Shown: in pieces, positions 46-56,554 of the stretch
Position numbering within the stretch: position 1 is the first letter of the stretch
Layout of the letters: each line of letters starts with the position of its first letter
Origin: a virus
Virus record (IMG/VR): IMGVR_UViG_3300028029_000124
Length of the DNA stretch: 64,000 bases
Direction: 5' to 3' (one strand)
Notes under the pieces: generated by a model
What the model was told of the DNA's origin: nothing
The model's input: only the letters and a program-made list of their open reading frames with translations
The model's database searches: none
Program-made: the position numbers and the translations under genes

Positions 46-180
46 GCTTACTCTTATTTAGCTAAGTATTGTTGGAAGATATCAGAAAATTTTAGTTGAA
101 AATAGCCGTCTTGGTGCCGAGAAACCGCAGGTGTACGACTAATCCTAAATTAGGGGGTAGGACTACTCACTAATTTAGGA

Positions 181-837
181 TTAGTCGTACACCTGAGCCT
201 CGCAGGACACCTTCTCCGAGCCGAACACTTGCGCCCGGCCGAACACCCGCGCCGCGCCACACACTTCCGCCGAGCCATACACCTGCGCCCGGCCGAACAC
301 CTGCGCCCGGTCGAACACCTTCGCCCGGTCGAACACCTTCGCCGAACCGAACACCTCCACCTCACCGAACACCTCCGCCTCACCGAACACCTCCGCCGAG
401 CCATACACCTTCGCATAGTCGTGAACATCCACATCTCCGGACACTTGCGCCCGGCCATACACCCACACATCTCCGTACACCCACACTGAGTCGAACACCC
501 ACGCCTCTCCGAACACCCTCACCGAGCCGAACACCAGCGCCGAGTCGGACACCCGTGCCTGACCGGACACCTCCGCCTCGCCGGACACCCGCGCCTGACC
601 GGACACCTCCGCCGCACCGAGCACCTTAGCGTAGTCGCCCACCTTAGCGTAGTCGCCCACCTTAGCGTAGTCGCCCACCTTAGCGTAGCCGCTCACCTTA
701 GCGTTCGGCCCAACAAACGCCGTGTCTTCTGCGGTAGCCGTGTCCTCTACGAGCCCTCCGCCGTTTGGGTGGCGATGCCAGCCCGCAGGGGCAGCGGGTA
801 GTTTGGTGAGATATGTTTTTTCTTGCGTCATACCCAT
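181..837 (-). CDS. Hexapeptide-repeat (LbH) protein
   Basis: Leader GWHRHPNGGGLVEDTAT..TAFVGP followed by many V-[YFSC]-[GD]-x-A-[KEQRW] hexads. Start moved from ORF-track 900 to ATG 837/831 by alignment with paralogs. Confidence 0.85.
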   Translation of the reverse strand: MGMTQEKTYLTKLPAAPAGWHRHPNGGGLVEDTATAEDTAFVGPNAKVSGYAKVGDYAKVGDYAKVGDYAKVLGAAEVSGQARVSGEAEVSGQARVSDSALVFGSVRVFGEAWVFDSVWVYGDVWVYGRAQVSGDVDVHDYAKVYGSAEVFGEAEVFGEVEVFGSAKVFDRAKVFDRAQVFGRAQVYGSAEVCGAARVFGRAQVFGSEKVSCEAQVYD

Positions 838-904
838 TATAGTAGGGATACAGTAGAAAAATAAATAGTCAAGGACATGTCCTGAACTATTATTTTTCAC
901 CCAT

Positions 905-1402
905 TTATTTTGGTGTTACTGGACACATTTCCTGGCCGTACACATTTTCCTGCCCGCACACCTCCGCCGAGCCCCTAACCTCCACACACCCAAACACTGA
1001 CGATTTACCAAATACTCGCGCCGATCCGTACACCTCCACCTTGCCCATCACCCACGCCTCGCCGAACACCTGCGCCTCGCCGTACACCTTAGCCTCGTTG
1101 AGTACTCTTGCATCGCCGTACACCTTCGCCGCGTCGAACACCTTCGCGTCACCGAATATCTGTGCTGAGTCGTATACCCGCGCCGAGTCGTACACATTCG
1201 CCTGGCCGCACACCTCCGCCGCACCGAGCACCTTAGCGTAGTCACCCACCTTAGCGTAGTCGCCAACCACAGCGTTCGGCCCAACAAACGCAGTGTCTTC
1301 TACGGTCGCTGTATTTTCGACGAGCCCCCCACCGTTTGGGTGGCGGTGCCAACCTGTAGGGGCGACGGGCAGTTTGGTTAGATCTGTTTTTTCTTGTGTC
1401 AT
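905..1402 (-). CDS. Hexapeptide-repeat (LbH) protein
   Basis: MTQEKTDLTKL leader at ATG 1402, NGGGLVE motif, hexad repeats. The upstream extension in the ORF track is an out-of-frame reading of an orphan fragment. Confidence 0.85.
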   Translation of the reverse strand: MTQEKTDLTKLPVAPTGWHRHPNGGGLVENTATVEDTAFVGPNAVVGDYAKVGDYAKVLGAAEVCGQANVYDSARVYDSAQIFGDAKVFDAAKVYGDARVLNEAKVYGEAQVFGEAWVMGKVEVYGSARVFGKSSVFGCVEVRGSAEVCGQENVYGQEMCPVTPK

Positions 1403-1460
1403 GTCACCTACCTCAGAGTGGTACACGAAAAAATAATAGTCAAGAACATGTCCTGGACTA

Positions 1461-1571
1461 TTATTTTGTTGTTCCCGAACACTTTTCCTGGCCGCATACA
1501 TGTGCGTAATCGTACACCTCCGCCGAGCCGAACACTTGCGCACACCCAAATACCGACGATTCGCCAAATAT
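1461..1571 (-). pseudogene. Orphan 3' fragment of an LbH gene
   Basis: Reads IFGESSVFGCAQVFGSAEVYDYAHVCGQEKCSGTTK* with no start codon; nucleotide-similar to the 3' end of 905..1402. Confidence 0.75.
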
Positions 1572-1582
1572 GTGGGAACCGC

Positions 1583-2437
1583 TCACCGCAAGCCTTTCAA
1601 CGCGAGCTCCGCCTCCTGCTCACCCATACGCAATTTTAGTGTGCGTAGTGACCTAGCGTATAGATCCAATCTTCCAGGGAGCTTGTCTTTTCCGGTGAAT
1701 GTTGCCGCCAATAGCCCTACTAGGAACGTTTCGTCCCTATGGGGCACATCTACAGCAGACAAAAAAGCACTGCACTCTACAAACATCCCCTTGCGCAAAC
1801 ATAAATCTACTGCAGAAAACAAGATATCCATGTCCTTGTCGCAACTATCTGAATGGGAGATAGTAGGTTTTGTTGTTGCACCCATTTCGGTATGTCCACA
1901 TACCCATAGGTCACCACAAACCCTAGCTTCCCCGTGCACCTGAGCGTTGTCAAACACTTTCACGCTGCCACACACGTGCACGTTTCCGTGCACCTGAGCT
2001 TCCCCGTACACCTTAGCATCTCCGAACACCCTAGCGCGCCCATATACCTCCGCATTGTCGTATACCTGAGCATCGCCGAACACCCAAGCATCTCCAGACA
2101 CGTCAGCGCAGTAGTATATCTTCGCACGGCCACACACATTTGCTGTGTCTGCTACCCTCGATGTATCGTATACGCAGGAATTTTCGTATACCTTAGCATG
2201 TCCTGTGACTTGTGCCGAACCGTGTACACGAGCGTTGTCGTATACCTGAGCATTGTCTAATATCTGAGCATCACCGTATACCTCCGCTGAGCCGTATACC
2301 TTCGCGTGTGGGGCGACGTACGCAGTATTGGCTACGGTCGCGGTGTCTTCGACAAGCCCCCCTCCATAAGGGTGGCGGTTCCACCCTTCTGGTACTTCGG
2401 GGAACTCAGTCACCAAAATAGTTTCTTCTGTGCCCAT
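1583..2437 (-). CDS. LbH protein with an unrelated ~100-aa C-terminal domain
   Basis: GWNRHPYGGGLVEDT leader and hexads up to ...VCGHTEM, then non-repetitive helical-looking sequence (DILFSAVDLCLRKG...ELALKGLR). Confidence 0.8.
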   Translation of the reverse strand: MGTEETILVTEFPEVPEGWNRHPYGGGLVEDTATVANTAYVAPHAKVYGSAEVYGDAQILDNAQVYDNARVHGSAQVTGHAKVYENSCVYDTSRVADTANVCGRAKIYYCADVSGDAWVFGDAQVYDNAEVYGRARVFGDAKVYGEAQVHGNVHVCGSVKVFDNAQVHGEARVCGDLWVCGHTEMGATTKPTISHSDSCDKDMDILFSAVDLCLRKGMFVECSAFLSAVDVPHRDETFLVGLLAATFTGKDKLPGRLDLYARSLRTLKLRMGEQEAELALKGLR

Positions 2438-2451
2438 AACTTACCCTACAA

Positions 2452-3219: not shown

Positions 3220-3360
3220 GTTTACTCTTATTTAGCTAAGTATTGTGGGAAGATATCAGAAAATTCGGGGTAAAAATAGCCGTCTTGGTGCCGAGAAACC
3301 TCATGCGTTGCGCTACGCGCTGGTGTGCGGGGAAACGGAGGACTACTCACTAATTTAGGA

Positions 3361-3957
3361 TTAGTCGTACACCTCCGTTTCCCCGCACACCAGCGCGTAG
3401 TCCGACACTCTCGCCGAGCCGAACACCTCAGCATAGCCGCACACCCACGCCCCGCCGAACACCTTAGCGTAGTCGTACACCTTCGCCCAGCCGAACACCT
3501 TAGCGTCTCCACACACCCTAGCCCGGCCGCACACCTTAGCCCGGTAGTATACGCTCGCCCGGTCGTACACATGAGCATCGCCGCACACCCGCGCCGAGCC
3601 ATACACCTCCACCGAGCCATACACCCGCGCCGAGTCGTATACACGCGCGCGGTCGAACACCCGCACCGAGCCGTACACACTCGCCGAACCGGATACCTGC
3701 GCCGAGCCGTACACCTCCGCCGAGCCGTACACCTTAGCTGCGCCAGATATCCACGCTTCGCCGTACACCTTAGCGTAGTTGCGCACCTCCGCCGAGCCGA
3801 GCACTCGCGCCGTGCCGTACACCTTCGCGTCGGGCCCAACGAACGCCGTGTCGGCCACGGTAGTGGTATCCTCCACTAGCCCGCCGCCGTTTTGGTGGCG
3901 GTGCCAGCCGACATGGGCAACGGAGAGTTTTGTGGTGTCTGTTTTTATGCGTGCCAT
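3361..3957 (-). CDS. Hexapeptide-repeat (LbH) protein
   Basis: GWHRHQNGGGLVEDT leader and hexads; 3' end and downstream bases match those of 181..837. Confidence 0.85.
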   Translation of the reverse strand: MARIKTDTTKLSVAHVGWHRHQNGGGLVEDTTTVADTAFVGPDAKVYGTARVLGSAEVRNYAKVYGEAWISGAAKVYGSAEVYGSAQVSGSASVYGSVRVFDRARVYDSARVYGSVEVYGSARVCGDAHVYDRASVYYRAKVCGRARVCGDAKVFGWAKVYDYAKVFGGAWVCGYAEVFGSARVSDYALVCGETEVYD

Positions 3958-4839: not shown

Positions 4840-4902
4840 GGTAGGTGCCTGGCGATGATGTAGGATAAATAATAATAATAATAAACAAGAAAATGTTCTG
4901 GC

Positions 4903-8629: not shown

Positions 8630-8795
8630 GTTGCTGCTTTCTGAAAATAGTGGATGTCTGTGTAGCACAAATAGACAGGACATAATACCTATTTATTCCT
8701 GTCTATTGGCTAGCTATCGCCCTATTGCGCCTATTTGAAGGGCATGCTACACTCGTTATCGCGGAATACGCGACAACTAGAAAAAACACAAAAAT

Positions 8796-10347: not shown

Positions 10348-10695
10348 ATGTCCGACCAGTTCGTAGATAGGGTTGCGGCACTTTCCGGGCACACTACTCG
10401 TGCGTGTAAGGCAGTAGCGGACGCTTTAGAGTCCGCAGATATCGGCATGTCTGCACAAGCGGAAACTTTGCGCAGGGTAGCAAACGAGCACGCTAGTGTG
10501 GTGTTCGACTGTTTTTGTGAAACGCAACCCATCGAGCTTCACAGATTCCAGATTTGTGCGAGGTTGAAACTTAGCATATCTGAAATATCCGCCTTAGCTG
10601 TTGACTTAGAGCAAAGAAGTAGGCCAGGAGGCAAAAAAATAAAGCGTGCCGTCGATTTGTTAATTTCTGTGCTGCACGAACAACCAGACGACTGA
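10348..10695 (+). CDS. Hypothetical protein
   Basis: ATG ORF continuing the plus-strand run, followed by a hairpin. Confidence 0.6.
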   Translation: MSDQFVDRVAALSGHTTRACKAVADALESADIGMSAQAETLRRVANEHASVVFDCFCETQPIELHRFQICARLKLSISEISALAVDLEQRSRPGGKKIKRAVDLLISVLHEQPDD

Positions 10696-10728
10696 CTTGA
10701 CTACGCGCCGAGCAAGTCGGTCGTCTGG
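10684..10728. terminator. Hairpin between convergent genes
   Basis: CCAGACGACTGACTTG / CAAGTCGGTCGTCTGG, 16-bp stem with one G-T pair, 13-nt loop. Confidence 0.6.
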
Positions 10729-11078: not shown

Positions 11079-11549
11079 TCACCCATTACCGATAGGTCCA
11101 AACATTCTAGGCCCCATGTTTTCTGGGTGAGTTAATTGGTCCACGGCGTGAGCTATGGCGTCTGCCCAGGGCCGAGTATCTTCACGCAGATATGGGAAAG
11201 TTTGCATAGCTACGCCTTCCGTAGGGGAGAAATCTACGACGACGATATTTGCCTGTGTATTGGAGCACATCCCCGTAACGTAGTCTGGAGATGCTGCCAT
11301 GTTCCTCACCACAAATTCTGCGCTGTCGCTGTATGCGGAACAAAAATTATTGAACACTCGTAGCATGCCTTGGTCCACATCACATATTTCCAGTGCTACT
11401 ATCGACTTGTTTTGTCTGCGTGCACGAAAAACTAGGTCTTCTCCGGAAGGCAATTTATTGTTGAAACAGAACCTACGGCTTGTTTTTTTGTTCTGTTTGG
11501 TGACCAAGATTGCTAGAAGGGCAGCAGCAGGGATGATTATGGGCAACAT
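11079..11549 (-). CDS. N-terminally membrane-anchored protein
   Basis: MLPIIIPAAALLAILV followed by basic TKQNKK. Confidence 0.7.
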   Translation of the reverse strand: MLPIIIPAAALLAILVTKQNKKTSRRFCFNNKLPSGEDLVFRARRQNKSIVALEICDVDQGMLRVFNNFCSAYSDSAEFVVRNMAASPDYVTGMCSNTQANIVVVDFSPTEGVAMQTFPYLREDTRPWADAIAHAVDQLTHPENMGPRMFGPIGNG

Positions 11550-11643
11550 GCCAGCATACTACCTCGAAATCTGTGGGGGGTCACATATTTCGAGGTAGTA
11601 TGCTGGCATGTTACTGTGATGGCTACTTATTGCCTCAGAGTAA

Positions 11644-15121: not shown

Positions 15122-18100
15122 TTAGAATGTCTTGACCACCAGTTTAACTACGTCTGTAGCAAACAAAGGGTAACCAAATTGTATGGAGTCTCCGGCAATT
15201 CCTGAGTTACCTGCAGCACATGTGAAGGATCCCGCTGTGCTCGATGTCACGTTGCTGTTTATCTCCTCTAGGCCATTCACCGACACGACAACGCGAGTGA
15301 CGAAACCGGATCCTGTAGGCACAGAAGTAGGGATGGTCCCTCCCCCCAAATCCACCAGTGATGTGAGCAAAATGTCTGTGTTGGCGGAAACCGCCCCTGG
15401 GACAAACTGACCTACAGTTTCGGAGTACGAGGATCCTCCTGCACCCACCTCAGTCCAGGTTGTGCCTTCCGAAACTACATCCGACGTATTTATCCACAGC
15501 GCCCCCGGAATGCCGTCTACTGCTTGTGTGTTGCGGAAATACAGTGAAGACGGCATCGCAGCAATTGACGCGGCGCCTGGGTCACGAGTACCTACCAACA
15601 TTTGTGCGGAAGATCCGTTTGTTCCACCCGTAGATAGCTCCACGATGTGCTCGTTGTCCAGGCTAGTGTCAGCATCCACAAATAAGTATCCGGGGATTCC
15701 TGCTGTCTCTAGGCCTGGCTGGACAACTACATTTCCTCCTCTGAGTCCCGTAATCCCTGCTGGTCCCCCCTTAATTATGGTGTCCGTGCCGGAAACTGAT
15801 CCTACTGAGGCGCCCGCACTGATCACTAATGGTCCAGCGGATGCGTTAGTTCCCGCCAATCCTGCTCCCGACGTAATAGTTACGTCACCTCCGCCTTGAT
15901 CGTCACATATTCCACCGGTGATGACGACCTTTCCTCCTAAAAAGCCGCCTGTTCCTACGTTGTGGGCATTTCCGCCAGTGATCGTTACGCTACCAGGAAG
16001 GCCGTCAGACTCTCCCATCGCCGCGTTTCCTGCCTTGATTGTGACGTTTCCGCCATTGCCGGGATCTCCGACGCCAGTATCTCCACATATCAGGCTGATG
16101 CTACCTGTTGCGGATTCGAGGTCTATGCCGTCTGCTGTGAGTATGGCGATGTCTCCGTAATTGCCTGCGGTCTGGATGGTTAGATTACTAAGATCTCCGA
16201 GCGTCTGAACAATTACATGTTCTTCGCTTTCTATAGTCTGTAGGGTTAGGTCTCCCGCAGACGCCTGAACTGTCCCTGACGTTCCTTCGAAATCTATAGT
16301 GTTCGCTACCCCGCCACCTGCGTGGAGTCCTACCTGGATGCGTGTGGATGCGCTCTCTGTGTCGAACGCCGCTCCGTCAAAGAATAAGTTTCGTGCTGTA
16401 CGTACCTCTAGCCCGCCGGCAGAGTCTCCCACGTCACCTATCGTTATCAAGTCACCTATTGCCCTAGGATTGAGCGACAGTAGGTTGTTTGTTCCTGCAT
16501 CATTGCTGAACGATAGCGTGTCAGCGTCGGTGATGCGCCAATCGAAAGATTGGTCCATGTTTGCATCGGTAGCGCCTGTGTCCTCTACTGCAACCTCTAG
16601 CGTTCCTCCCCCACCCGACCCCGTGCCTACCTGCACCCAGTCTGTGTTGTTGGGCACCGCACCATTATGTATGTACATGGTAGATAGCGTCCCGGATGCT
16701 CGGTATGCTATATCTCCTGGGTTGCCCGTAATGTTTCCTATGGGGCTGGCGGCAGTCACATACTGCCTAACGTCATCGGTCGTACCTGTGTTGAGCAAGC
16801 GCAACACAATATCCCCTGCAGTAGATGCGGGAGCAGAACGTACAGTGACTGCGCCCAGTATGCCGCTGGAAGACGTCCCTGGAGACAGGGTAATGTCTCC
16901 GCCTGCCCCCACTCCTGGGGCGGCTCCCGCGATGATGGACACGTCGCCCCCTCCACTAGTGCCTCCGCCGTTTCCTGCGGCCAGTGTGATGGCGCCCCCC
17001 ACATTATTTCCTGAGCTGGCGCCTGCCGCTACGGTAACCGCCCCACCGAGCCCAGATACAGTGACATCTCCGGCAGCTATGCTTATGTCTCCAGAGCTGC
17101 CCGTGTTCACGTCCCCTGTGCCCAGCGTCAACGGCCCAGAATTACCTGAAATACTTCCTGCTCCACGAGTACCTACTAAGATACTACCAGAGTCCCCTGT
17201 AGTGGACCCTGGTACGCCGGAGAGAAGTCGTATGTCTCCAGACGTCCCTGTTCCGGACGCAGAACCTGGTCCGGAGACAATGTCAATATTCCCGCCAATA
17301 GATCCCGCCGTAGATCCCCCGGCTCCGCCATTCAGGACTAGTGTGCCGCCAGCACCTGTCCCGGAGCCGCCGCCCGCTATAACGGAAATTTCTCCTCCTG
17401 CGTTGTTGCCTCCCGTGGCGGACCCGGAAGTGACGTTTACTGAGTTTCCTGCTGCTGCGGGCTCGTCTCCTGCGGTGATGTTTACAGCGTCCGCGGCAAG
17501 TAGGTCTAAGTTTCCAGACGTTTCCGTAGAGACAGTGAACGTACCAGTGGTTACTGTGATGTTTGATGCGCCAGTACCATCGATGGAGAAAGTCCCTCCA
17601 GACAGAAGGTCGAATGTGCCCGCGACATCCACATCCATATTCGTTCCGGCATTTACGTCCAACACAGTGCCAGATGTTATATCTACGTCTTGTCCGGCAG
17701 ATAGCGAAGCGTTGCCTGCGGAGGCCCCCACTGATATGTTGCCCGCAGATACTGTGAAATTAGACGTGGCGCCGGCGTCTAGGGACACCGCCCCTGCCAT
17801 GAGTACGTCGAAGGTAGTCCCGTCGAAATCCTGTATCGGAGCATCTACGTCGAATATCAAGGCGGCTCCCGCCACCTGCACACTCGTCGCCTCCGTGACA
17901 ACAAACATATTCGCACTCAAACTGTCCCGCAACCTCCAGGCGCGAGTAGCTGCCAGATTCACGGTAGCGTTGGTAGCTACTGTTACTGTGCTTGTGCCTT
18001 GGTTGTCGTACGCGTTTTGGCGTGTAACGTCTACCGCCGCTGCCTGGTCGACCAGGCCACCTGGCCAGGGAGCGAAACACTCTTCTGGGACGGACTCCAG

Positions 18101-18796
18101 TGTACTCCTAGCGACATACCCGTACTCGATGGTGAGCCCTGCTGCTGCTGTGGTCAGATCGAAGCCGTTACGTCCAGCGTTGACTACGACAAGCGAAATC
18201 TGAACTCCGTCTGCCCCGTTGTCGAAAGCGTTACCGTTTGTGGCCGTGCTGGGGCCCTGGAGTAGACCGTATACTTGGTCGCCTCCAGGAGTAGAGACCA
18301 CGTCCCCTGTGGCAGTATCTACTAGTACACAAAGATTCTTAGGTGCCAGTGCGTTCTGTCCAGGCACGACCACTGAAGAATTACCTGTACCTACTGCTCC
18401 AGCGAGTTGGGCAGTGATGGCACCAGAAGTCGTCACAGCTCCAATGGCAGATACTTCTGTAGGTACCTGTCCAGGAGAAGCCAGAGTAACTACGTTTGCT
18501 CCTCCCCCAACTACAATATCGGCAAGGGTAGATACCCGGCAGAGTATTGTTTTCCCTTCGAGGTCAGATAAGTCAGAATCTAATTCAATGACGCCTCGCG
18601 CGGTTACTGCGTCGTACCAGTGCTCTCCTCCTGTGGGGACAATTCCGTGAATTAGTTTGTTTACTTGTGATCTAATCGCGTTGTAATCGAACTCCCCGCT
18701 AGATGCTGCGGTCTGTAGTGCAGCGAGCCCGGTGCCTAATGTGTCCGTGTACGTGTCAGAAGGACGAAGCTGGGTAGATTGCCGTGTTTTTGACAT
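15122..18796 (-). CDS. Large Gly-rich fibre/spike-like protein (1224 aa)
   Basis: Long run of GGxIxLxAG beta-repeats; N-terminal ~470 aa almost identical to 19545..21806. Confidence 0.75.
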   Translation of the reverse strand: MSKTRQSTQLRPSDTYTDTLGTGLAALQTAASSGEFDYNAIRSQVNKLIHGIVPTGGEHWYDAVTARGVIELDSDLSDLEGKTILCRVSTLADIVVGGGANVVTLASPGQVPTEVSAIGAVTTSGAITAQLAGAVGTGNSSVVVPGQNALAPKNLCVLVDTATGDVVSTPGGDQVYGLLQGPSTATNGNAFDNGADGVQISLVVVNAGRNGFDLTTAAAGLTIEYGYVARSTLESVPEECFAPWPGGLVDQAAAVDVTRQNAYDNQGTSTVTVATNATVNLAATRAWRLRDSLSANMFVVTEATSVQVAGAALIFDVDAPIQDFDGTTFDVLMAGAVSLDAGATSNFTVSAGNISVGASAGNASLSAGQDVDITSGTVLDVNAGTNMDVDVAGTFDLLSGGTFSIDGTGASNITVTTGTFTVSTETSGNLDLLAADAVNITAGDEPAAAGNSVNVTSGSATGGNNAGGEISVIAGGGSGTGAGGTLVLNGGAGGSTAGSIGGNIDIVSGPGSASGTGTSGDIRLLSGVPGSTTGDSGSILVGTRGAGSISGNSGPLTLGTGDVNTGSSGDISIAAGDVTVSGLGGAVTVAAGASSGNNVGGAITLAAGNGGGTSGGGDVSIIAGAAPGVGAGGDITLSPGTSSSGILGAVTVRSAPASTAGDIVLRLLNTGTTDDVRQYVTAASPIGNITGNPGDIAYRASGTLSTMYIHNGAVPNNTDWVQVGTGSGGGGTLEVAVEDTGATDANMDQSFDWRITDADTLSFSNDAGTNNLLSLNPRAIGDLITIGDVGDSAGGLEVRTARNLFFDGAAFDTESASTRIQVGLHAGGGVANTIDFEGTSGTVQASAGDLTLQTIESEEHVIVQTLGDLSNLTIQTAGNYGDIAILTADGIDLESATGSISLICGDTGVGDPGNGGNVTIKAGNAAMGESDGLPGSVTITGGNAHNVGTGGFLGGKVVITGGICDDQGGGDVTITSGAGLAGTNASAGPLVISAGASVGSVSGTDTIIKGGPAGITGLRGGNVVVQPGLETAGIPGYLFVDADTSLDNEHIVELSTGGTNGSSAQMLVGTRDPGAASIAAMPSSLYFRNTQAVDGIPGALWINTSDVVSEGTTWTEVGAGGSSYSETVGQFVPGAVSANTDILLTSLVDLGGGTIPTSVPTGSGFVTRVVVSVNGLEEINSNVTSSTAGSFTCAAGNSGIAGDSIQFGYPLFATDVVKLVVKTF
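17384..18796. repeat. ~1.4-kb near-identical direct repeat, copy 1 (copy 2 at 20394-21806)
   Basis: Constant offset of 3010 bp; identical shadow ORFs in the track (17563/20573, 17760/20770, 17999/21009, 18219/21229); few substitutions seen, mostly near the ends. Confidence 0.95.
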
Positions 18797-19544: not shown

Positions 19545-21806
19545 CTAGTACACTTCCGTGTTTATGAATGAAGCAGTAACCAGTCCGCCCGCTGCGGAAT
19601 CGTCACACTGCGCGAATGTTCCTGTGCCTGGAAAAGTAGCAGATGCTGAGGACCCTGCGGTTCCTGACGTGCCTAAGTAATCTCCCGCGGTTGCAGCATT
19701 CGTTACTTTCACTGTGAATCTACCTGCTATAACCAACCATACCTCAGCATTGTTTGCTCCGCCTATGGCTACAGGGTAAACAACGTCAGTGTTGTCGGCT
19801 GTAGTGGTAGTGGTTACAGAATTAGCGTTAAATATATCCATGACTGCTAAGTCGTTCACCGCTAATGGTCCACCGGACCTGTTCGTTTTAGCTATACAAA
19901 TAGCTTCTCCGATGAATCTAATAGATGCCGCTTTTACTACTTTTCCTGTAGATCCACTAAATAGTGCTACTTCATTATCTACAGAGCTTGCTGGGCCAGT
20001 AACGTCTCCACCAGATATCTCCGTCCAATCGGTTCCCTCTCCCGCTACGTCTGACGTGTTTATCCACACTGCCCCGGCTGTACCGTCCGCGACTTGTGTG
20101 TTCCTCAAGTATAGCGATGCAGGTCTAGCAGATATTGCTGTTGCATCTGGGTCACTTGTGCCTACAAGCATCTGTGCTGCGGATCCATTGCTTCCCCCCG
20201 TAGATAGTTCCACGATGTGTTCATCGTCACCGTTACTAGAACCTGCTAACGAGACGAACCCAGGCACTCCAGCAGTCTCTAGTCCTGGTCGCAACACTAC
20301 GTTGCCGCCAGTAGCACCAGTAGCTCCTGCTGAACCTGCGGATATGACAACATCTTCTCCGGACGAGGACCCGTTTGCGTCACCTACGGTGATGGAAATT
20401 TCTCCTCCTGCGTTGTTTCCTCCCGTGGCGGACCCGGAAGTGATGTTTACTGAGTTGCCTGCTGCTGCGGGCTCGTCTCCTGCGGTGATGTTTACAGCGT
20501 CCGCGGCAAGTAGGTCTAAGTTTCCAGACGTTTCCGTAGAGACAGTGAACGTACCAGTGGTTACTGTGATGTTTGATGCGCCAGTACCATCGATGGAGAA
20601 AGTCCCTCCAGACAGAAGGTCGAATGTGCCCGCGACATCCACATCCATATTCGTTCCGGCATTTACGTCCAACACAGTGCCAGATGTTATATCTACGTCT
20701 TGTCCGGCAGATAGCGAAGCGTTGCCTGCGGAGGCCCCCACTGATATGTTGCCCGCAGATACTGTGAAATTAGACGTGGCGCCGGCGTCTAGGGACACCG
20801 CCCCTGCCATGAGTACGTCGAAGGTAGTCCCGTCGAAATCCTGTATCGGAGCATCTACGTCGAATATCAAGGCGGCTCCCGCCACCTGCACACTCGTCGC
20901 CTCCGTGACAACAAACATATTCGCACTCAAACTGTCCCGCAACCTCCAGGCGCGAGTAGCTGCCAGATTCACGGTAGCGTTGGTAGCTACTGTTACTGTG
21001 CTTGTGCCTTGGTTGTCGTACGCGTTTTGGCGTGTAACGTCTACCGCCGCTGCCTGGTCGACCAGGCCACCTGGCCAGGGAGCGAAACACTCTTCTGGGA
21101 CGGACTCCAGTGTACTCCTAGCGACATACCCGTACTCGATGGTGAGCCCTGCTGCTGCTGTGGTCAGATCGAAGCCGTTACGTCCAGCGTTGACTACGAC
21201 AAGCGAAATCTGAACTCCGTCTGCCCCGTTGTCGAAAGCGTTACCGTTTGTGGCCGTGCTGGGGCCCTGGAGTAGACCGTATACTTGGTCGCCTCCAGGA
21301 GTAGAGACCACGTCCCCTGTGGCAGTATCTACTAGTACACAAAGATTCTTAGGTGCCAGTGCGTTCTGTCCAGGCACGACCACTGAAGAATTACCTGTAC
21401 CTACTGCTCCAGCGAGTTGGGCAGTGATGGCACCAGAAGTCGTCACAGCTCCAATGGCAGATACTTCTGTAGGTACCTGTCCAGGAGAAGCCAGAGTAAC
21501 TACGTTTGCTCCTCCCCCAACTACAATATCGGCAAGGGTAGATACCCGGCAGAGTATTGTTTTCCCTTCGAGGTCAGATAAGTCAGAATCTAATTCAATG
21601 ACGCCTCGCGCGGTTACTGCGTCGTACCAGTGCTCTCCTCCTGTGGGAACAATTCCGTGAATTAGTTTGTTTACTTGTGATCTAATCGCGTTGTAATCGA
21701 ACTCCCCGCTAGATGCTGCGGTCTGTAGTGCAGCGAGCCCGGTGCCTAATGTGTCCGTGTACGTGTCAGAAGGGAGTAGCTGAGTAGATTGTCGTGTTGC
21801 CACCAT
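19545..21806 (-). CDS. Gly-rich fibre/spike-like protein (753 aa), paralog of 15122..18796
   Basis: Shared N-terminus, shorter repeat region, different C-terminal module. Confidence 0.75.
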   Translation of the reverse strand: MVATRQSTQLLPSDTYTDTLGTGLAALQTAASSGEFDYNAIRSQVNKLIHGIVPTGGEHWYDAVTARGVIELDSDLSDLEGKTILCRVSTLADIVVGGGANVVTLASPGQVPTEVSAIGAVTTSGAITAQLAGAVGTGNSSVVVPGQNALAPKNLCVLVDTATGDVVSTPGGDQVYGLLQGPSTATNGNAFDNGADGVQISLVVVNAGRNGFDLTTAAAGLTIEYGYVARSTLESVPEECFAPWPGGLVDQAAAVDVTRQNAYDNQGTSTVTVATNATVNLAATRAWRLRDSLSANMFVVTEATSVQVAGAALIFDVDAPIQDFDGTTFDVLMAGAVSLDAGATSNFTVSAGNISVGASAGNASLSAGQDVDITSGTVLDVNAGTNMDVDVAGTFDLLSGGTFSIDGTGASNITVTTGTFTVSTETSGNLDLLAADAVNITAGDEPAAAGNSVNITSGSATGGNNAGGEISITVGDANGSSSGEDVVISAGSAGATGATGGNVVLRPGLETAGVPGFVSLAGSSNGDDEHIVELSTGGSNGSAAQMLVGTSDPDATAISARPASLYLRNTQVADGTAGAVWINTSDVAGEGTDWTEISGGDVTGPASSVDNEVALFSGSTGKVVKAASIRFIGEAICIAKTNRSGGPLAVNDLAVMDIFNANSVTTTTTADNTDVVYPVAIGGANNAEVWLVIAGRFTVKVTNAATAGDYLGTSGTAGSSASATFPGTGTFAQCDDSAAGGLVTASFINTEVY
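20394..21806. repeat. ~1.4-kb near-identical direct repeat, copy 2
   Basis: Matches 17384-18796. Confidence 0.95.
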
Positions 21807-31651: not shown

Positions 31652-31954
31652 CTATCGCGTTGACCTATATGCGCGATAGGCTTTCTTGGTAAGCGACGAA
31701 ACTATAAAAGTTTTGTCTAAAGTCTTAACATATCTGTCTCTGTGCTCTGTCCAGGTATCTGGGTTTGTTGTAAATAAGACATCTCTGGCACTGCGTAGTA
31801 TGTCGTTTACGTGGCCTACAGGTTCGGATAGGTGAGAAAAAGTGTTGGGCAACGCCTTTTTTGCTATGTCCCTAGTTGTAAGTAATATGCGCAGCACAGT
31901 AGAGATAATACCACAAAAAATGTTTTGTGGTATTATCTCTACTGTGCTGCGCAT
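31652..31954 (-). CDS. Hypothetical protein whose 5' part is a perfect palindrome
   Basis: 100-aa ORF in the expected orientation; first ~25 codons lie within the 31878-31963 palindrome. Confidence 0.35.
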   Translation of the reverse strand: MRSTVEIIPQNIFCGIISTVLRILLTTRDIAKKALPNTFSHLSEPVGHVNDILRSARDVLFTTNPDTWTEHRDRYVKTLDKTFIVSSLTKKAYRAYRSTR

Positions 31955-31963
31955 ATTACTTAC
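31878..31963. repeat. Perfect inverted repeat, 41-bp arms, 4-nt centre
   Basis: GTAAGTAATATGCGCAGCACAGTAGAGATAATACCACAAAA-AATG-TTTTGTGGTATTATCTCTACTGTGCTGCGCATATTACTTAC. Confidence 0.97.
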
Positions 31964-31972: not shown

Positions 31973-32776
31973 CTAGTCTGCTGCCTCTTTTAGGCAGTCA
32001 CTAGCGATACGGAATATCGTTGTTAGGTCTTCTTCTGTGTGATTGGTTCCGAATCGCACCTTAGCCGCTGCGCTAAGTACCGCCCTATTTTCCGTGAGTT
32101 CTTTTCTCCTACTCTGGCTGAGCACAGGTTCTTTTTTTCCGAATATTTTAGCCAGTAGTCCCTTTTTACTCTCTGGGATAGTTAGTATCTTATCTACATT
32201 CGCTATCTCTGATTCTATCATTGCATTCCATACGGACCCTAGTTTGTTTGTGGTAGGTACGGAACGAAGTATATTTAGTTGTATAACATCCCCGATCACC
32301 ATCAACAACATGTTGGCTTTCTCGTGGTGTGCTACAGCTACGGCCAGGTGTGTGATGTTGTACATATCAACATCCCCACTAGCATCACGCATTTTTTGTA
32401 TGCTTAGCTGCATTTTTGTAGGTAGTGCAGCTAGCCTATAAGACACGTCGTTCTTGTTCTTCTCGTAAATATCTTTACTTGCCTTGTATATTGTGCTTTC
32501 CTCTTCTGCTACCCACTCGGCATGCTCCTCCGGGCTACGAAAAAATACTTCGGTAGTGTGTCCAGCTTGTACTATGCTTACTCCCCTAGGGCCATAATCG
32601 TCGTCCGGTCGCCCCCAGGTACACAAACTATCTCCTGATTGCGGCTGTGGGTAACCCTCCCCTCTAGGGTAAGACACGCGCATTCCGTGATCCAGGATAC
32701 ACGTCCATGTATGTCCGTCGTTAGACAGTAATACTTCGGTTACTGTATAGCTCTCTGTAGGTCTTGTTTTTGTCAT
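31973..32776 (-). CDS. Hypothetical protein
   Basis: 267-aa ATG ORF co-oriented with the replication genes. Confidence 0.65.
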   Translation of the reverse strand: MTKTRPTESYTVTEVLLSNDGHTWTCILDHGMRVSYPRGEGYPQPQSGDSLCTWGRPDDDYGPRGVSIVQAGHTTEVFFRSPEEHAEWVAEEESTIYKASKDIYEKNKNDVSYRLAALPTKMQLSIQKMRDASGDVDMYNITHLAVAVAHHEKANMLLMVIGDVIQLNILRSVPTTNKLGSVWNAMIESEIANVDKILTIPESKKGLLAKIFGKKEPVLSQSRRKELTENRAVLSAAAKVRFGTNHTEEDLTTIFRIASDCLKEAAD

Positions 32777-35700: not shown

Positions 35701-35745
35701 ATGCCCTCACGCATAAATACATGTGGGCATATGTTGTGTAGTCAG

Positions 35746-42809: not shown

Positions 42810-42851
42810 AAAGTCACCCCCGCAATCTTAGTTGATTGTGGGGGTGACTTT
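42810..42851 (+). terminator. Strong hairpin after tRNA
   Basis: AAAGTCACCCCCGCAATC / GATTGTGGGGGTGACTTT, 18-bp stem with one G-T pair. Confidence 0.75.
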
Positions 42852-43213: not shown

Positions 43214-43881
43214 GCTCGTGTACCCTGTCTGGCTCTAACGTGTCGCCGTGGGCGGTATTGTGTAGATTGTCGTGCTTGCGCGTACGGCGAAACGGCTTGT
43301 GTACATAGCTGTAGTCTTGCGCACACCGCACCAAACAAAAAACACAATTCATTATGTATTTTTGGTTACTTGCACATAGGTGCTAGATGGTAGTTAGGTG
43401 ATAATGCCGCGCAATATGTGCCTCAATATTTATATAATAAAAATATTCGTCACAGTTTTTGTGTCGTGAGGTACATTTATGCCTCGATCGATCAGGTAAC
43501 ATTACTACCACAATATTTATATTACCGATATATTGCCGGATATCGGTGCAAGTTCCGCTCAATATCCTGCAATATAAGGCAATATAAATATTATTTAGGT
43601 AAGATCTCACGGAAAATTGTCGGAATAATATTTTATTAGGCTAATTAATATTTTATTAGTTACCCTGCAAGGCTGACATGTTCTCCAACGAAACCATATA
43701 TTTAGTAACGTACAACACAAAACAATATTTTATTATGTGGCTTCTACCCGAATTATATGTGTAATGTGTACCAGAATGTAACAAAACTACACTCGGTGCG
43801 CCAACCCCGTGATAGTGCGTATTCTTGTAGTTACCACCCCGTGCGGCACACATACAGAACAAAAATTAGTTGCGCAGTTTA

Positions 43882-43999
43882 CGCGGGGCCAGCTGGAAAA
43901 CGCCTAATTGGAAGGTTAATTTATTGAGAAATTTTTGGTTAGAATTAATTCTTCTTATTTCCCAAGCAACCAATTTGGCGTTTTCCAGCTGGCCCCGCG
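43882..43999. repeat. 30-bp inverted repeat (1 mismatch) around a 58-nt AT-rich spacer
   Basis: CGCGGGGCCAGCTGGAAAACGCCTAATTGG ... CCAATTTGGCGTTTTCCAGCTGGCCCCGCG. Confidence 0.92.
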
Positions 44000-44296
44000 C
44001 ACACACCGCTTTTTGCGTTCGGTTTTTCTTACGTCGATCCCTCAGCTTCAGTGATCGCTTGAGGTACTCTCAACACCAGCACACATCTTACCCCGTATGG
44101 CGCTCACATGGGCCGTGGTGAGGTTTCGCCCACCGGGGCCCGGGCATAGCAGCAAAAAACGCTAGGACGTTACTGGGGGCAACACATGGCGCACAGACAC
44201 GAACACATAAAATTAGTTTTTGTTGCTGTACGGGAAGCATCCCGGATTGACTGCGAACGCAAACCAAGGTAGTACTGTGCCGGACAGCCGATACAT

Positions 44297-49108: not shown

Positions 49109-49223
49109 TTATTAGACTGGTGTTGTGAGCTACTATTCAAAATAAAAGAAAGAAAATAATCGTCCCGGCACCTAGAAACCCCGTGCGGTGAGCTACGGGG
49201 TCATGGCCTATAGGGCAATAGTG

Positions 49224-50771: not shown

Positions 50772-50893
50772 TTTTTGTCCCTATTTCTTAGACTCTGGTT
50801 GTCTAAACGTATTCAAAATAAAAGAAAGAAAATAATCGTCCTAGCACCTCGAAACCCCGTGCGGTGAGCTACGGGGTCGATCAAAGATCGGTG

Positions 50894-51523
50894 CTACCGA
50901 TCTTTGACGCACCAATTTCCGTTGACGCTAATCAAAATTCCGTGATCATCCCAAGAATATATCTCGGCAGTGTCCACCGGGGCGGGGCCGCCGAAAACGC
51001 GTAGGCCGGTCACGTCTATCCCGATATCCATTAGCGACTTGCACGCACCATCGGGACCACAGATAGAATTTTCTGCTCGATTCAACGTCTCGGCCAATTC
51101 CTCCAGGCTGTCGGAGTCGACTACGGCCTGCGCTTCCTCGGATAATTCTGAATCCATGTATGTGATTGTCGTTACGCGAGATCCGTCATATGAGCGGTTA
51201 GCCCCTGTATCCGTGACGCGCAAAATTCCACAATATGCGATATCGACGACGATGACACCCCCATGACGCGACCCCACGACGCTCTTCTGCCGCCACACGG
51301 TATCCCCGTCCACCCCCGCGGGCAGGCTAGGGTGGATGGTTATGTCATGTGACGCACATAGTTCGCCATTAAAGTGAACACCTACGGTCCACGTGTACGA
51401 CCTATCGTCCGTAGACAGATCTCCGGCGAATTGTTTGGCGGCGTCGTACGGACACGCGGCTAGCACCAGATATTTTTCTTCGCATCCAACAGTATCACAA
51501 TAGTATGTTTTTTCTTGTGTCAT
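50894..51523 (-). CDS. Non-LbH cargo protein beginning with the LbH leader MTQEKT
   Basis: Full junction elements on both sides; only the first six residues resemble the LbH genes. Confidence 0.75.
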   Translation of the reverse strand: MTQEKTYYCDTVGCEEKYLVLAACPYDAAKQFAGDLSTDDRSYTWTVGVHFNGELCASHDITIHPSLPAGVDGDTVWRQKSVVGSRHGGVIVVDIAYCGILRVTDTGANRSYDGSRVTTITYMDSELSEEAQAVVDSDSLEELAETLNRAENSICGPDGACKSLMDIGIDVTGLRVFGGPAPVDTAEIYSWDDHGILISVNGNWCVKDR

Positions 51524-51619: not shown

Positions 51620-52261
51620 CTACCTACTCGGCATAATTAAAATTTCCCAATACCCCCCCGAGGTACCTATATAATCCGAGCAGCTCAACATGAAAATTAT
51701 CGGGTCCATGGCACCCACTCCCAGATACATATCCACAACACTAGGGTTCCTTCCGTCGGCTAGCTTGAGCATCCGCGCCAACAATTGAATGTTCACACGT
51801 ATGTCGCTCGCACGCTTATTTTCGGGTCTTTCTGCAGACTGCACGGCAGCAGAGTAAATTGTGCCTAGCTTGGCACCAACGACCATACCGGAGCTGTTTA
51901 CCCGCACACGCTCGGTAACAGAAAATTTTCCTGACATCTGTACACCATCCACACAAATTGTGGCTACTCCTTCACCTGAATCGTACGGTGCTTGTACGGA
52001 TATAACCGATTTACGCCCAGCCGATTTTAGTGCTATTTCTGCGCACGCTAGTGGTAGGCAGTGAAATGTGTCCGGAATTTCGCGCACGTGTTCACTCCCT
52101 CTGTCCGTACGGACGGCGCACGCATGACCGTCAGTAGCAGCTAGGTGATGTCTAGACACTAACAACGGTAACAGATAAGAATCTTCCTTATTTCCTACAA
52201 TCTTGGACGCAGACGCTATCAAGAAAGACAACTCTTTTTTTGTGATTATGTGGCTAACCAT
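51620..52261 (-). CDS. Sliding-clamp (DNA Pol III beta)-like partial protein
   Basis: LAATDGHACAV and RVNIQLLARML resemble beta-clamp domain motifs; much shorter than DnaN. Confidence 0.45.
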   Translation of the reverse strand: MVSHIITKKELSFLIASASKIVGNKEDSYLLPLLVSRHHLAATDGHACAVRTDRGSEHVREIPDTFHCLPLACAEIALKSAGRKSVISVQAPYDSGEGVATICVDGVQMSGKFSVTERVRVNSSGMVVGAKLGTIYSAAVQSAERPENKRASDIRVNIQLLARMLKLADGRNPSVVDMYLGVGAMDPIIFMLSCSDYIGTSGGYWEILIMPSR

Positions 52262-55034: not shown

Positions 55035-55307
55035 TATTTGTCCTCCGCTGCGAAGTAACGCAGCTAGGAGAGCGTATACCAGGCGCAAAAACATATCCAA
55101 TTTACCTCGTACACAAGTAAAAACACCAAGGATTACAGCACCTTGGAAAAATACACTTGTGGTGCACACAAGACATCAAATAATTGCTTGCGTAAGAGTA
55201 TGTAATTTATGTAAATTACATATAGATATCGCCGTGTATGTATGCGGTGAGTTACTACCACCACCAGATGCTTACATCGCATTTAGCGAATTACTAAGGA
55301 CTACAAA

Positions 55308-55724
55308 CATGGCAATTGATAAATCAGATCTTATGAAGCTTCCTAAAGAGGAAGTCGTTAGCGGTTTCGCACGTATGACCGCAAGCTTGCGCAAGAGCAA
55401 GGAAGTCGCACGACGCAAAGCCGAAGACGTCATGGAATACGCAATTAGCGGCGGTGCGTCATTCGGTGTCGGATATTGGATTGGTACTACCAAGGGAGAG
55501 CACGCGCTCTCAGGAACAGACCCCACCGAAGACCTAAAGATTGTAGGTGTCGATAAGGACCTACTAATCGGAGGAGCTTTGGCCGTCATGGGAATTACCG
55601 GCATCGGAGGAAAGAAAGCGTCGGCAGCAGCATCCTCAGCAGGCAAGGGCGTCTTGTCGTATTGGGCGGGCAGCGCGGGCGAACGCATGGCGATTGAGCG
55701 TGCCACCGAAGAGGATTCGAGCAT
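55308..55724 (+). CDS. Small membrane-associated protein
   Basis: Probable start MAIDKS; two Gly-rich hydrophobic segments (GGASFGVGYWIG; LLIGGALAVMGITGIG). Confidence 0.7.
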
Positions 55725-55800
55725 CTAAAATTGTTGGGTGTTTGACTACCTAGCGAACACCTATATTTTGTTCTAGCGTTCCGAGAAGAAGTATAGACGC

Positions 55801-55826
55801 GCGAAATGCGCATATGCGCACTTCGC
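55801..55826. promoter_or_regulatory. 26-bp near-perfect palindrome, candidate operator
   Basis: GCGAAATGCGCAT|ATGCGCACTTCGC, one mismatch, about 100 bp upstream of 55929. Confidence 0.55.
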
Positions 55827-55928
55827 ACATATTAGTCTTTCTAGGGGAAGAAGAGCGCGCAGGGTATAACTAAATTGTGTGAGATATCTCACACATAACC
55901 AATCACAACCTGCAAAAGGAATACTACT

Positions 55929-56513
55929 ATGTCTCGACAACGAATTATCGCGGGGCGCTCGCGCGCACCATGGGCCGGGCTTTCCGGCAACTCTGAAGGT
56001 TACGCCGGCGGAAGCTGCCCCACGGGCAACAACAACGTCAACGATAACCGATACTCATGCCAATCGAGTATGTGTGAAGACGAGGCACCCGTCTGCGGGT
56101 GCAACGTAATCGGCGCCAACACGTTTGACACCGATCAGAACGGGGTCGCGGCAGGTGTTAGCCGCAAGCTCAGCATCGACGCAGGCGACGCATGTCGCTG
56201 GCAGCCACGATCTATGTTGATCGTCGGGTACGACGCTGACGCAGCAAACGCAGAGCGTTTGTCCTCTCCCGTCGTTCAAACCCCCACTGTGCTATTGACT
56301 GCCAGTGTCGGAACAATTCCGATGATTCGGCGCACAGGCGCCAACAGCTTCGGAATTATCAGCGACGGTTATAGTGACCGCAAAGAGATCACTTGCGTCG
56401 ATTGGGCACCATTCACGTCGGTGCAAAATCAGGGTCTCACTCTGGAGTTTCTCCAGGTCGGCGCGAACCCGCTGCACATCTTCGTGATCCTCTGGGGCGA
56501 TAACCTCGGGTAG
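55929..56513 (+). CDS. Beta-rich protein, candidate single jelly-roll capsid protein
   Basis: Basic/Cys-rich N-arm then alternating beta-strand patterns; followed by a strong terminator. Fold call is inference. Confidence 0.4.
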   Translation: MSRQRIIAGRSRAPWAGLSGNSEGYAGGSCPTGNNNVNDNRYSCQSSMCEDEAPVCGCNVIGANTFDTDQNGVAAGVSRKLSIDAGDACRWQPRSMLIVGYDADAANAERLSSPVVQTPTVLLTASVGTIPMIRRTGANSFGIISDGYSDRKEITCVDWAPFTSVQNQGLTLEFLQVGANPLHIFVILWGDNLG

Positions 56514-56519
56514 TGCGTG

Positions 56520-56554
56520 CGCAGCAAGACCTACATTATGTAGGTCTTGCTGCG
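56520..56554 (+). terminator. Intrinsic terminator
   Basis: CGCAGCAAGACCTACAT-T-ATGTAGGTCTTGCTGCG perfect 17-bp arms followed by TATTATTTTT. Confidence 0.8.

Follow-up and report, generated by a model that had tools for sequence, protein, structure and literature searches.

Long inverted repeats at gene boundaries in a phage genome: a mixed set whose longest perfect members probably arose by template switching

Quasi-palindrome mutations in phage T4 were reportedly described by Ripley in 1982. A four-point template-switch model has been published (PMC5453318), and template switching creates and maintains RNA hairpins (PMC8794818), including de novo miRNA hairpins (PMC10710096). Homogenisation of the arms at quasi-palindromes has been described in proteobacteria (PMC5941160), and a T7-type family A replisome has been shown in vitro to switch templates at repeats (PMC9484634). 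In Mimiviridae, transcript 3' ends follow a 'hairpin rule', which involves polyadenylation and a virus-encoded cleavage enzyme in a eukaryotic giant virus (PMC4402537).

The DNA analysed here is a 64,000-nt window of a phage genome of ~84 kb. All nine inverted repeats that an earlier note had listed are present in the window, with the following arms:
128-153/170-195: perfect arms of 26 bp (128 repeat)
3313-3341/3372-3400: perfect arms of 29 bp (3313 repeat)
11545-11570/11587-11612: perfect arms of 26 bp (11545 repeat)
31878-31918/31923-31963: perfect arms of 41 bp (31878 repeat)
50881-50892/50896-50907: perfect arms of 12 bp (50881 repeat)
56520-56536/56538-56554: perfect arms of 17 bp (56520 repeat)
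43882-43911/43970-43999: arms of 30 with one mismatch (inner part of the 43872 repeat)
10684 repeat: arms of 16 with one mismatch
42810 repeat: arms of 18 with one mismatch

Comparison with ENA k141 contigs and with Logan contigs of SRR8439058, which come from a different assembler, showed that other contigs of the same virus carry seven of the repeats (3313, 10684, 11545, 31878, 35697, 50881, and 56520) without a single base difference. The 3313 repeat was unchanged in contig k141_956228, the 31878 repeat in contig k141_788549, and the 11545 repeat in one Logan and one ENA contig.

The window held 10 stems of at least 12 bp, against 0.07 in dinucleotide shuffles of 2-kb blocks and 0.33 in codon-preserving shuffles. 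Five stems reached at least 17 bp, against 0 in both kinds of shuffle. The baseline of 636 kb of other phage DNA (40 viral or metagenome loci, T7, and MW202816) contained about 0.2 stems of at least 17 bp and about 0.1 of at least 20 bp per 64 kb; its longest stem was 20, and only three of its perfect stems reached 15 bp. The long-stem excess of the window over this baseline gave a Poisson P of about 2e-6 to 4e-6. A mismatch-tolerant score of at least 20 was reached five times in the window versus 0.2 times per 64 kb of baseline, and the relatives L008 and L010 had no perfect stem longer than 12 bp. The excess had been proposed to be genome-wide. The long tail is indeed exceptional against shuffles and other phages, but short repeats (9 bp or more) have a total density of 5.8 per 10 kb, inside the range of 0–7.9 of other contigs. 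Because other phages span this short-repeat density, the data do not demonstrate a switching rate that is raised in general. Within genes, perfect repeats of at least 8 bp numbered 45 versus 17.8 +/- 4.4 in codon shuffles, a surplus that is as expected if arm-perfecting acts genome-wide.

The repeats sit at gene boundaries, as the earlier note had said: 12 of the 15 scored touch intergenic DNA, which makes up 10.5% of the window (P = 6e-10). Stop codons lie within the stems of 128, 3313, 10684, and 50881, and start codons within the repeats 11545, 8670, and 35697. Each arm matches only its neighbouring partner. When long inverted repeats were sought with no distance limit, the arms lay 2–58 nt apart, and the only exceptions were the matching ends of the paralogous 128 and 3313 cassettes and one weak 21-nt pair. 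Hairpins are present at a minority of gene ends only, and in folding energy per nucleotide only about 8 of the 51 listed intergenic gaps are conspicuous. The set is mixed rather than one system, and comprises long-stem terminators, an origin-like element, and fold-backs without a U-tract. The latter are the long perfect repeats 128, 3313, 11545, and 31878, in which one arm contains a gene's own stop or start and the other falls in spacer.

Three repeats lie at the ends of cassettes:
128..195, minus strand: fold-back repeat, 26 bp perfect, 33-nt arms at 94%, 16-nt loop
170-195: source arm of 128, the last four codons and TAA stop (181-183) of the beta-solenoid gene 181..831
128-153: copy arm of 128, in the 3' spacer
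3313..3400, minus strand: fold-back repeat, 29 bp perfect, 30-nt loop
3372-3400: source arm of 3313, the last codons of gene 3361..3957
3313-3341: copy arm of 3313, replacing the spacer and 5' arm of the conserved cassette hairpin
50881..50907, minus strand: hairpin with a 12-bp perfect stem and 3-nt loop across the TAG stop (50894-50896) of the cargo gene 50894..51523
49169..49204, minus strand: representative of the conserved 7-bp cassette hairpin (ACCCCGT, 10-nt loop, ACGGGGT, TTC), ~21 nt past the stop
52334-52369, 50845-50880, 50144-50179, 48283-48318, 47612-47647: stretches with further copies of this hairpin
4026-4061, 3289-3324: copies that are degenerate or half overwritten

The source arms of 128 and 3313 bear out the claim that several arms copy coding ends. 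A typical cassette has a stop codon, a spacer of 21 nt, and the 7-bp hairpin, with 45 nt from the stop to the conserved TTC. Compared with its paralogues, the 3313 cassette keeps the total of 45 nt, and ~22 nt of spacer plus the 5' arm of the hairpin are swapped for the inverted copy. Microhomologies of CCT and CGTAG mark the junctions, and what remains of the old hairpin, its loop and 3' arm, stands stranded. The 128 copy lies over an old loop and 3' arm that even before had been complementary in part to the coding end, and this repeat perfected a quasi-palindrome that was already there. The paralogous cassettes show that 3313 and 128 both overwrote the conserved small hairpin, which supports the template-switch reading for these two repeats. 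Up to the break, genes 831 and 3957 are identical over 34 nt; beyond it, their inverted copies differ. The 128 and 3313 repeats are two independent events after a duplication. Where the conserved 7-bp hairpin has degenerated, in the left array of cassettes, a new large hairpin occupies the same slot in four of the eight. At 50881, the conserved cassette hairpin lies immediately downstream. Paralogous comparators exist for 128, 3313, and 50881 only, and the footprint is read entirely from them; the polymerases of the closest relatives are only 46–50% identical, so the ancestral state is taken from paralogues rather than orthologues.

Four other repeats involve start sites or spacers:
11545..11612, minus strand: fold-back, 31-nt arms at 97% (26 bp perfect), 6-nt loop, no U-tract
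11545-11575: arm of 11545 with the Shine-Dalgarno-like GAGG and ATG (11547-11549) of gene 11079..11549
31878..31963, minus strand: 86-bp palindrome, 41-bp perfect arms, asymmetric 4-nt centre (AATG/CATT)
8670..8707, minus strand: imperfect repeat, 18-nt arms at 83%, 3' arm (minus strand) spanning the integrase start codon (8681-8683)
35697..35734, minus strand: imperfect repeat, 18-nt arms at 83%, 3' arm spanning GAGGG and ATG

The other arm of 11545 occupies an unusually long spacer of 94 nt. The palindrome at 31878 begins 9 nt past the TAG of gene 31973..32776. One of its arms holds the start of the orphan ORF 31652..31954, which stays in frame through the loop and second arm (45 nt, 15 codons) and has coding-like codon usage. 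No counterpart of this palindrome was found in the relatives compared. For 11545 and 31878, both without a paralogous comparator, the direction of copying is suggested by which arm looks functional. The start codon in the 3' arm of 35697 belongs to the family A DNA polymerase gene (33535..35700), and the stop codon of the upstream gene is 12 nt ahead of the 5' arm.

At the ends of transcription units lie five further repeats, hairpins of terminator type:
858..897, minus strand: A/T-flanked palindrome (AAAAATAATAGT..GGACATGTCC..ACTATTTATTTTT) after gene 905..1402, terminator-like, with a T-run
1425..1472, minus strand: second copy of the A/T-flanked palindrome, 12-bp perfect core, T-run
10684..10728, plus strand: hairpin of convergent genes, 16-nt arms, the sole mismatch being G-U on the plus strand
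42810..42851, plus strand: post-tRNA hairpin, 18-nt arms, one G-U pair
56520..56554, plus strand: intrinsic terminator, 17-bp perfect stem (19 bp with flanking pairs), then TATTATTTTTAT

The earlier note had proposed, for the whole set, either template switching or a selected dsRNA- or cruciform-based control layer. Template switching suits the longest perfect repeats, but one genome-wide class that takes in these five hairpins and the one origin-like site is not supported. A stem followed by a U-tract was found at 56520, 858, 1425, and a repeat at window-equivalent 67123, T-runs following 56520 and the last of these; the tail is weaker at 42810 and 10684. The 56520 stem is a canonical intrinsic terminator after gene 55929..56513. 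The 42810 hairpin begins 2 nt after tRNA-Ile(TAT) (42734-42808) and is the putative terminator of the primase and tRNA unit. The 5' arm of 10684 holds the TGA stop (10693-10695) of gene 10348..10695, and this hairpin between convergent genes looks like a bidirectional terminator. Other cassettes have the same 3' half-site as the 858 palindrome without its 5' arm. The clear terminators of this phage have perfect stems of 15–19 bp. We suggest that transcription units terminate at the hairpins 10684, 42810, 56520, and two more slightly beyond the window, and the unusually long and perfect stems of these hairpins would fit the same arm-homogenising process. The repeats 128, 3313, 11545, 31878, and 43872 were rejected as intrinsic terminators: no U-tract follows their stems, and none was called in the terminator scan.

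We favour, with a probability of roughly 60%, the reading that the longest perfect repeats arose by template switching, that they share a common cause with the arm-perfecting elsewhere, and that there are three kinds of repeat overall, the other two being the terminator hairpins and an older, origin-like DNA-level element at 43872. The repeats 128, 3313, 11545, and 31878, and probably 50881 and the 858/1425 pair, would be young products of short-range template switching, that is, of Ripley's quasi-palindrome mechanism, also called four-point template-switch mutation. We infer that the polymerase would briefly copy the nascent or opposite strand backwards and then rejoin the original template. 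An exact inverted copy of a constrained neighbour (the last codons and stop, or the ribosome-binding site and start) would be written into dispensable spacer. Selection would remove the events inside genes, so the survivors would pile up at gene boundaries, where they may serve as 3' hairpins or start-site occluders. In the arrays of beta-solenoid cassettes, the new copies would replace the older conserved 3' hairpin, and the hairpins would thus turn over. The inverted copies are exact reverse complements of sequence within about 100 nt and have no other source in the genome; at 3313, as seen from paralogues only, a stretch is replaced and microhomology is present at the switch points.

A second reading, possible but clearly less probable, is that the long hairpins are a selected control layer at the RNA level and that template switching was merely their route of origin. 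They would be sites of RNase III processing, stabilise 3' ends, terminate transcription independently of a U-tract, or occlude translation. The strong boundary bias, the stop and start codons inside stems, and the new large hairpins in half of the left-array cassettes, where the 7-bp hairpin decayed, are consistent with such roles. Both wobble-type mismatches (10684 and 42810) are G-U on the transcribed strand, and the clear terminators likewise have long perfect stems. Three fold-backs at one slot of paralogous cassettes could reflect a selected hairpin rather than a mutational hot spot, and four to five perfect long repeats in one genome are many for neutral scars. However, the RNase III family was matched by none of ~60 non-solenoid ORFs in a Pfam scan, only a minority of gene ends have a hairpin, and at the same junctions close relatives have none of these repeats. 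Gene 11079..11549 would pay in expression for a 31-bp stem across its start, as would ORF 31652..31954 for the palindrome it contains. The covariation of the conserved cassette hairpin was not above shuffles, and long-term selection on pairing does not yield perfect arms of 26–41 bp.

It is unlikely that the largest palindromes (31878 and 43872) are both sites acting at the DNA level, as cruciforms or protein-binding elements; an origin of replication, a telomere-resolution (tel) site, and a packaging signal are the candidates. The second of the two is this element:
43872..44009, no strand assigned: origin-like repeat, 40-nt GC-rich arms at 88% (inner 30 nt with one mismatch) enclosing a 58-nt AT-rich spacer

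It lies beside the primase gene; the intergenic region around it spans 735 nt and contains AATATTT-type repeats (43400-43760). Its arm motif occurs only twice in the window. In both of the closest relatives, L008 and L010, the equivalent place next to the primase gene also has long repeats, with iterons. By architecture and position, 43872 resembles a replication origin and is a candidate for one; within the template-switch reading it would be an older DNA-level element. The 31878 palindrome lies at the end of the replication gene block, but its asymmetric centre, the coding-like ORF passing through it, the lack of a counterpart in relatives, and the lack of a protelomerase family match among the window proteins scanned argue against a DNA-level site. 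The cassette-end fold-backs would also be left unexplained.

It is very improbable that fold-back chimeras or other errors of amplification, library preparation, or assembly produced the repeats: inverted chimeras do arise in amplification with strand-displacing polymerases (PMC9484634) and one sample may underlie all records found, but the repeats are internal and 27–138 bp long, so that each fits one 141-mer of the k141 contigs, the k = 141 assemblies span each of them, the sequence beyond them keeps the correct frame and length, different assemblers returned identical repeats, and in-vitro errors would not avoid coding sequence as 12 of the 15 repeats do.

We speculate, with considerable doubt, that the family A polymerase replisome of this lineage switches templates at short inverted repeats unusually often, so that it goes on making and perfecting long hairpins, and that these are then co-opted as RNA structures at gene ends, namely terminators, RNase III sites, or start-site occluders. 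If so, the sister cassettes of 128 and 3313 would show hairpin birth and turnover caught in progress.

Among known systems, integron attC sites are also imperfect palindromes 3' of each cassette gene, in an array that here adjoins a tyrosine recombinase gene. The phage stems differ in being perfect, without extrahelical bases, and in copying the adjacent coding end; the GTTRRRY / RYYYAAC core was not seen when the 128 repeat was read by eye, without a pattern search. The recombinase gave weak XerC/XerD-type, generic Xer-like matches far below all curated NCBIfam cut-offs, with 45.8 bits against a 220-bit cut-off for the archaeal XerA model ('tyrosine recombinase/integron integrase'), and an integron (attC and IntI) was rejected. 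Protelomerase target sites of the N15 telRL type are, like 31878, long perfect palindromes near replication genes; a tel site was rejected for 31878, whose AATG/CATT centre is not self-complementary and which an ORF crosses, with no protelomerase gene found among the scanned proteins. As under the Mimiviridae hairpin rule, long palindromes of unrelated sequence lie just downstream of phage genes. This rule was also rejected, since the phage hairpins occur at a minority of genes and the scanned window ORFs contain no RNase III family; among the polymerase relatives, the more distant ones (about 40% identity) belong to tailed phages. Intrinsic and bidirectional terminators are matched by 56520, 858, 1425, 42810, and the 67123-equivalent, which have T/A runs at unit ends, and by 10684 between convergent genes, whereas the phage stems are longer (15–19 bp) and perfect, and the repeats of 26–41 bp lack a U-tract. 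Quasi-palindrome mutations are compared with at least four or five long events (26–41 bp) in one phage genome, all at gene ends, two of them independent events at one slot of sister cassettes that replaced a conserved hairpin, the ancestral state being known from paralogues only. The likeness is that the phage insert is an exact reverse complement of the adjacent sequence, the replaced stretch keeps its length, both junctions show microhomology, a weak inverted repeat becomes perfect, and a long perfect stem forms in a single step.

All of the inverted repeats listed in the earlier note were recovered in the window, and each is named here by its start coordinate. The perfect stems with loops of up to 60 nt measured 41, 29, 26, 26, 17 and 13 bp, with four more of 12 bp. 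Ten stems reached at least 12 bp, where block dinucleotide shuffles gave 0.07 and codon-preserving shuffles 0.33; five reached at least 17 bp, and the shuffles gave none. The comparison set was 636 kb of other phage DNA, comprising 40 non-redundant viral or metagenome loci, T7 and MW202816, the best polymerase match in the phage database. In this set, stems of at least 17 bp occurred at approximately 0.2 per 64 kb and those of at least 20 bp at approximately 0.1, the longest being 20 bp, and T7 had no stem of at least 10 bp. The Poisson probability of the long-stem excess against this DNA was 2 × 10−6 to 4 × 10−6. A mismatch-tolerant score of at least 20 was reached by 5 repeats in the window and by 0.2 per 64 kb in the comparison DNA. 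Short repeats (at least 9 bp) had a density of 5.8 per 10 kb, which is inside the range of the other contigs (0–7.9). The genome-wide excess proposed in the earlier note thus holds for long stems and not for general repeat density. Within genes outside the arrays, short perfect repeats (at least 8 bp) were 2.5–3 times commoner than in codon shuffles (45 vs. 17.8 ± 4.4).

The proposed placement at gene boundaries was borne out, since 12 of the 15 scored repeats touch intergenic DNA, which makes up 10.5% of the sequence (P = 6 × 10−10). This boundary bias argues against in-vitro chimeras. Consensus promoter and terminator scans of the window gave counts no higher than those of shuffles.

Other contigs of the virus were found through exact protein matches. 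The window was matched by two MEGAHIT-style k141 contigs (ENA ERZ27262693) and two Logan contigs (run SRR8439058), in which repeats 3313, 10684, 11545, 31878, 35697, 50881 and 56520 were base-identical. The sole differences were two 18-nt repeat-unit indels within solenoid genes, indicating that at least one matching contig differs from the window's own contig. In another assembly of the virus, L055, exactly one hexapeptide-repeat unit of 18 nt is missing at each of 4953-4970 and 6612-6629, and the remaining sequence is identical over 16.5 kb. The number of repeat units varies, either within the population or from one assembly to another. A 300-nt direct repeat (99% identity; 17384-17683 and 20394-20693) lies in the large genes 15122..18796 and 19545..21806, and one independent assembly ends close to it. 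Contig L057 of this virus covers 7.5 kb past the window and carries three more repeats, showing that the pattern extends beyond the window:
L057 15966-16030 (window-equivalent 66725), 12-bp stem
L057 16364-16393 (window-equivalent 67123), 15-bp perfect palindromic terminator with a T-run
L057 19279-19311 (window-equivalent 70038), 16-bp stem between convergent genes

The window comes from an uncultured phage and is 89.5% coding. Its replication block encodes a primase-helicase, a PD-(D/E)XK nuclease, a helicase and a family A DNA polymerase, and a Xer-like tyrosine recombinase and a D12 adenine methyltransferase are also encoded. The Rfam search of the window returned nothing beyond the tRNA. 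The other elements needed below are:
1-7523 and 47667-52947, minus strand, two arrays of paralogous YdcK/bactofilin-like beta-solenoid genes
42734-42808, tRNA-Ile (anticodon TAT), the only tRNA of the window, directly 3′ of the primase gene

The solenoid genes of both arrays share the leader MTQEKTDLTKLPAAPxGWHRHPNGGGLVED, and some cassettes carry unrelated "cargo" bodies (50894..51523 and 51620..52261). The ORFs 42852-43352 and 44088-44582 have a non-coding-like codon usage. The former matches sequence antisense to solenoid-like genes of other contigs; any real gene here may therefore lie on the plus strand.

The phage records searched by DNA and by protein gave no close match, and the best protein-database match to the polymerase had 50% identity. 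The closest relatives have the same replication-gene order with a polymerase identity of only 46–50%. Polymerase scans of viral contigs, species genomes and metagenome contigs recovered relatives at 26–37% identity only, and no relative turned up when viral contigs were scanned with the primase. Three polymerase relatives at approximately 40% identity (L052, L053 and L054) are tailed phages that encode portal, terminase, Mu-F and baseplate proteins. This virus is therefore probably tailed as well, its own structural genes being very divergent. The perfect repeats are not shared by the relatives, indicating that the repeat load is specific to this genome and not a family-wide rule.

The repeat set is heterogeneous and includes several kinds. 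The first kind comprises long perfect fold-backs without a U-tract, none of which was called by the terminator scan. One arm of each is a constrained sequence and the partner arm lies in the spacer:
128 and 3313, constrained arm formed by the final codons and stop of a solenoid gene
11545, constrained arm formed by GAGG and the ATG of gene 11079..11549
31878, constrained arm formed by the start of an orphan ORF, the downstream part of which has coding-like codon usage

Smaller hairpins, distinct from these fold-backs, lie over the start codons of the integrase (8670) and the polymerase (35697).

In 31878, the loop and second arm contribute exactly 45 nt, in frame. The orphan genes adjoining 31878 and 11545 had no homologues except their own sequences.

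The paralogous cassette junctions inside the genome allowed a before-and-after comparison. A typical junction consists of the stop codon, a 21-nt spacer, ACCCCGT, a 10-nt loop, ACGGGGT and TTC, with 45 nt from stop codon to TTC. After gene 3957 (3361..3957, minus strand), this distance is still 45 nt. An exact reverse complement of the last codons now occupies approximately 22 nt of it, the small hairpin's 5′ arm among them. The copy starts past the common CCT and finishes in CGTAG, which also occurs within the ancestral hairpin; the old loop and 3′ arm persist, now unpaired. After gene 831 (181..831, minus strand), the copy lies on top of the old loop and 3′ arm, which were already partly complementary to the coding end; in repeat 128, a quasi-palindrome was thus made perfect. 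The two genes are identical over 34 bases up to the break, beyond which their inverted copies differ; these are two independent events following duplication. Every fold-back arm lacks a second match in the window apart from its partner. With no distance limit, all long inverted repeats were still local, and the sole distant pairs were a weak one of 21 nt and the match of the 128 end to its paralogous 3313 end.

The fold-back footprint is that published for short-range template switching (PMC5453318, PMC5941160). Template switching is known to make long perfect hairpins in a single step (PMC8794818, PMC10710096), and in vitro it occurs at inverted repeats with a T7-type replisome (PMC9484634). 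The long perfect repeats are best explained by template-switch or quasi-palindrome mutation, with the paralogue footprint seen at 128 and 3313. The earlier note's suggestion of one genome-wide cause is not supported for the whole set, which also includes terminators and 43872.

The shorter repeats are intrinsic-type terminators with unusually long stems:
56520, 17–19 bp stem followed by TATTATTTTTAT, immediately 3′ of a stop codon
42810, begins 2 nt 3′ of the tRNA
10684, between convergent genes, with a TGA stop inside the 5′ arm
858 and 1425, A/T-flanked palindromes

The lone mismatch of 10684 and that of 42810 are each a G-U pair on the transcribed strand. The 858 and 1425 palindromes look like template switching on the half-site CTTGACTATTATTTTT, which other cassettes bear alone; a deletion in those other cassettes is a possible alternative.

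Repeat 43872 consists of two imperfect, GC-rich arms of 40 nt separated by an AT-rich spacer of 58 nt. The intergenic region that holds it is 735 nt long and contains AT-rich repeats. At the equivalent place adjoining the primase gene lie the longest repeats of both closest relatives, which are built of iteron-like direct and inverted units (L008 2441-2572 and L010 1640-1760; TGTCATCAGC and GTATCAGCACTGAACG). The arm motif of 43872 had no exact match in the relatives. By its position and composition, 43872 is a probable candidate origin-like element. Repeats of the AATATTT(T)AT(T)A type occur several times, in either orientation, within the AT-rich stretch 43400-43760, which may be an origin or regulatory region.

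Two other palindromes were observed. A near-perfect 26-bp palindrome at 55801-55826, with the 14-bp perfect core TGCGCATATGCGCA, lies in a 759-nt intergenic region preceding the rightward gene block and resembles an operator. The repeat at 31320-31389 (22-nt arms, 20/22 paired, 26-nt loop) lies within the Peptidase_M15-like gene 30863..31621 and may be either a regulatory structure or the product of template switching that has been tolerated; a PDB sequence search with this protein gave no informative match.

Four of the eight cassettes in the left array, where the conserved small hairpin has decayed, bear a large new hairpin in its position. Turnover of hairpins, with selection favoring some 3′ structure, is compatible with this pattern; so, equally, is a mutational hot spot where a hairpin stalls replication. 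Covariation in the conserved 7-bp cassette hairpin amounted to two compensatory pairs, which was not above shuffles.

RNase III, protelomerase, integron integrase and reverse transcriptase families were not detected in the scanned ORFs. An N15-type tel reading of 31878 was rejected, as the scans gave no protelomerase and the palindrome center is asymmetric. Integron attC sites and the Mimiviridae hairpin rule were rejected on their defining tests (for the latter, intergenic regions and Pfam scans), the former also lacking its integrase, and retroelement self-priming was dismissed, no reverse transcriptase family having matched a scanned ORF. Long perfect palindromes in such genomes are not necessarily recombination sites, telomere sites or switches, and should be annotated with caution.

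The mode of origin of long perfect RNA and DNA stems is a long-standing puzzle. Template switching has been proposed as their single-step origin, chiefly from animal and bacterial genomes. This phage presents several fresh events within one small genome, with before and after states visible in internal paralogues, at stop codons, start codons and cassette ends, where a hairpin can matter. Should reads and transcript maps confirm this, the phage would offer a compact natural system in which to study how terminator-like hairpins are born and replaced. Its unusual features are the number of template-switch scars in one genome, their strict placement at gene ends and the paralogue evidence.
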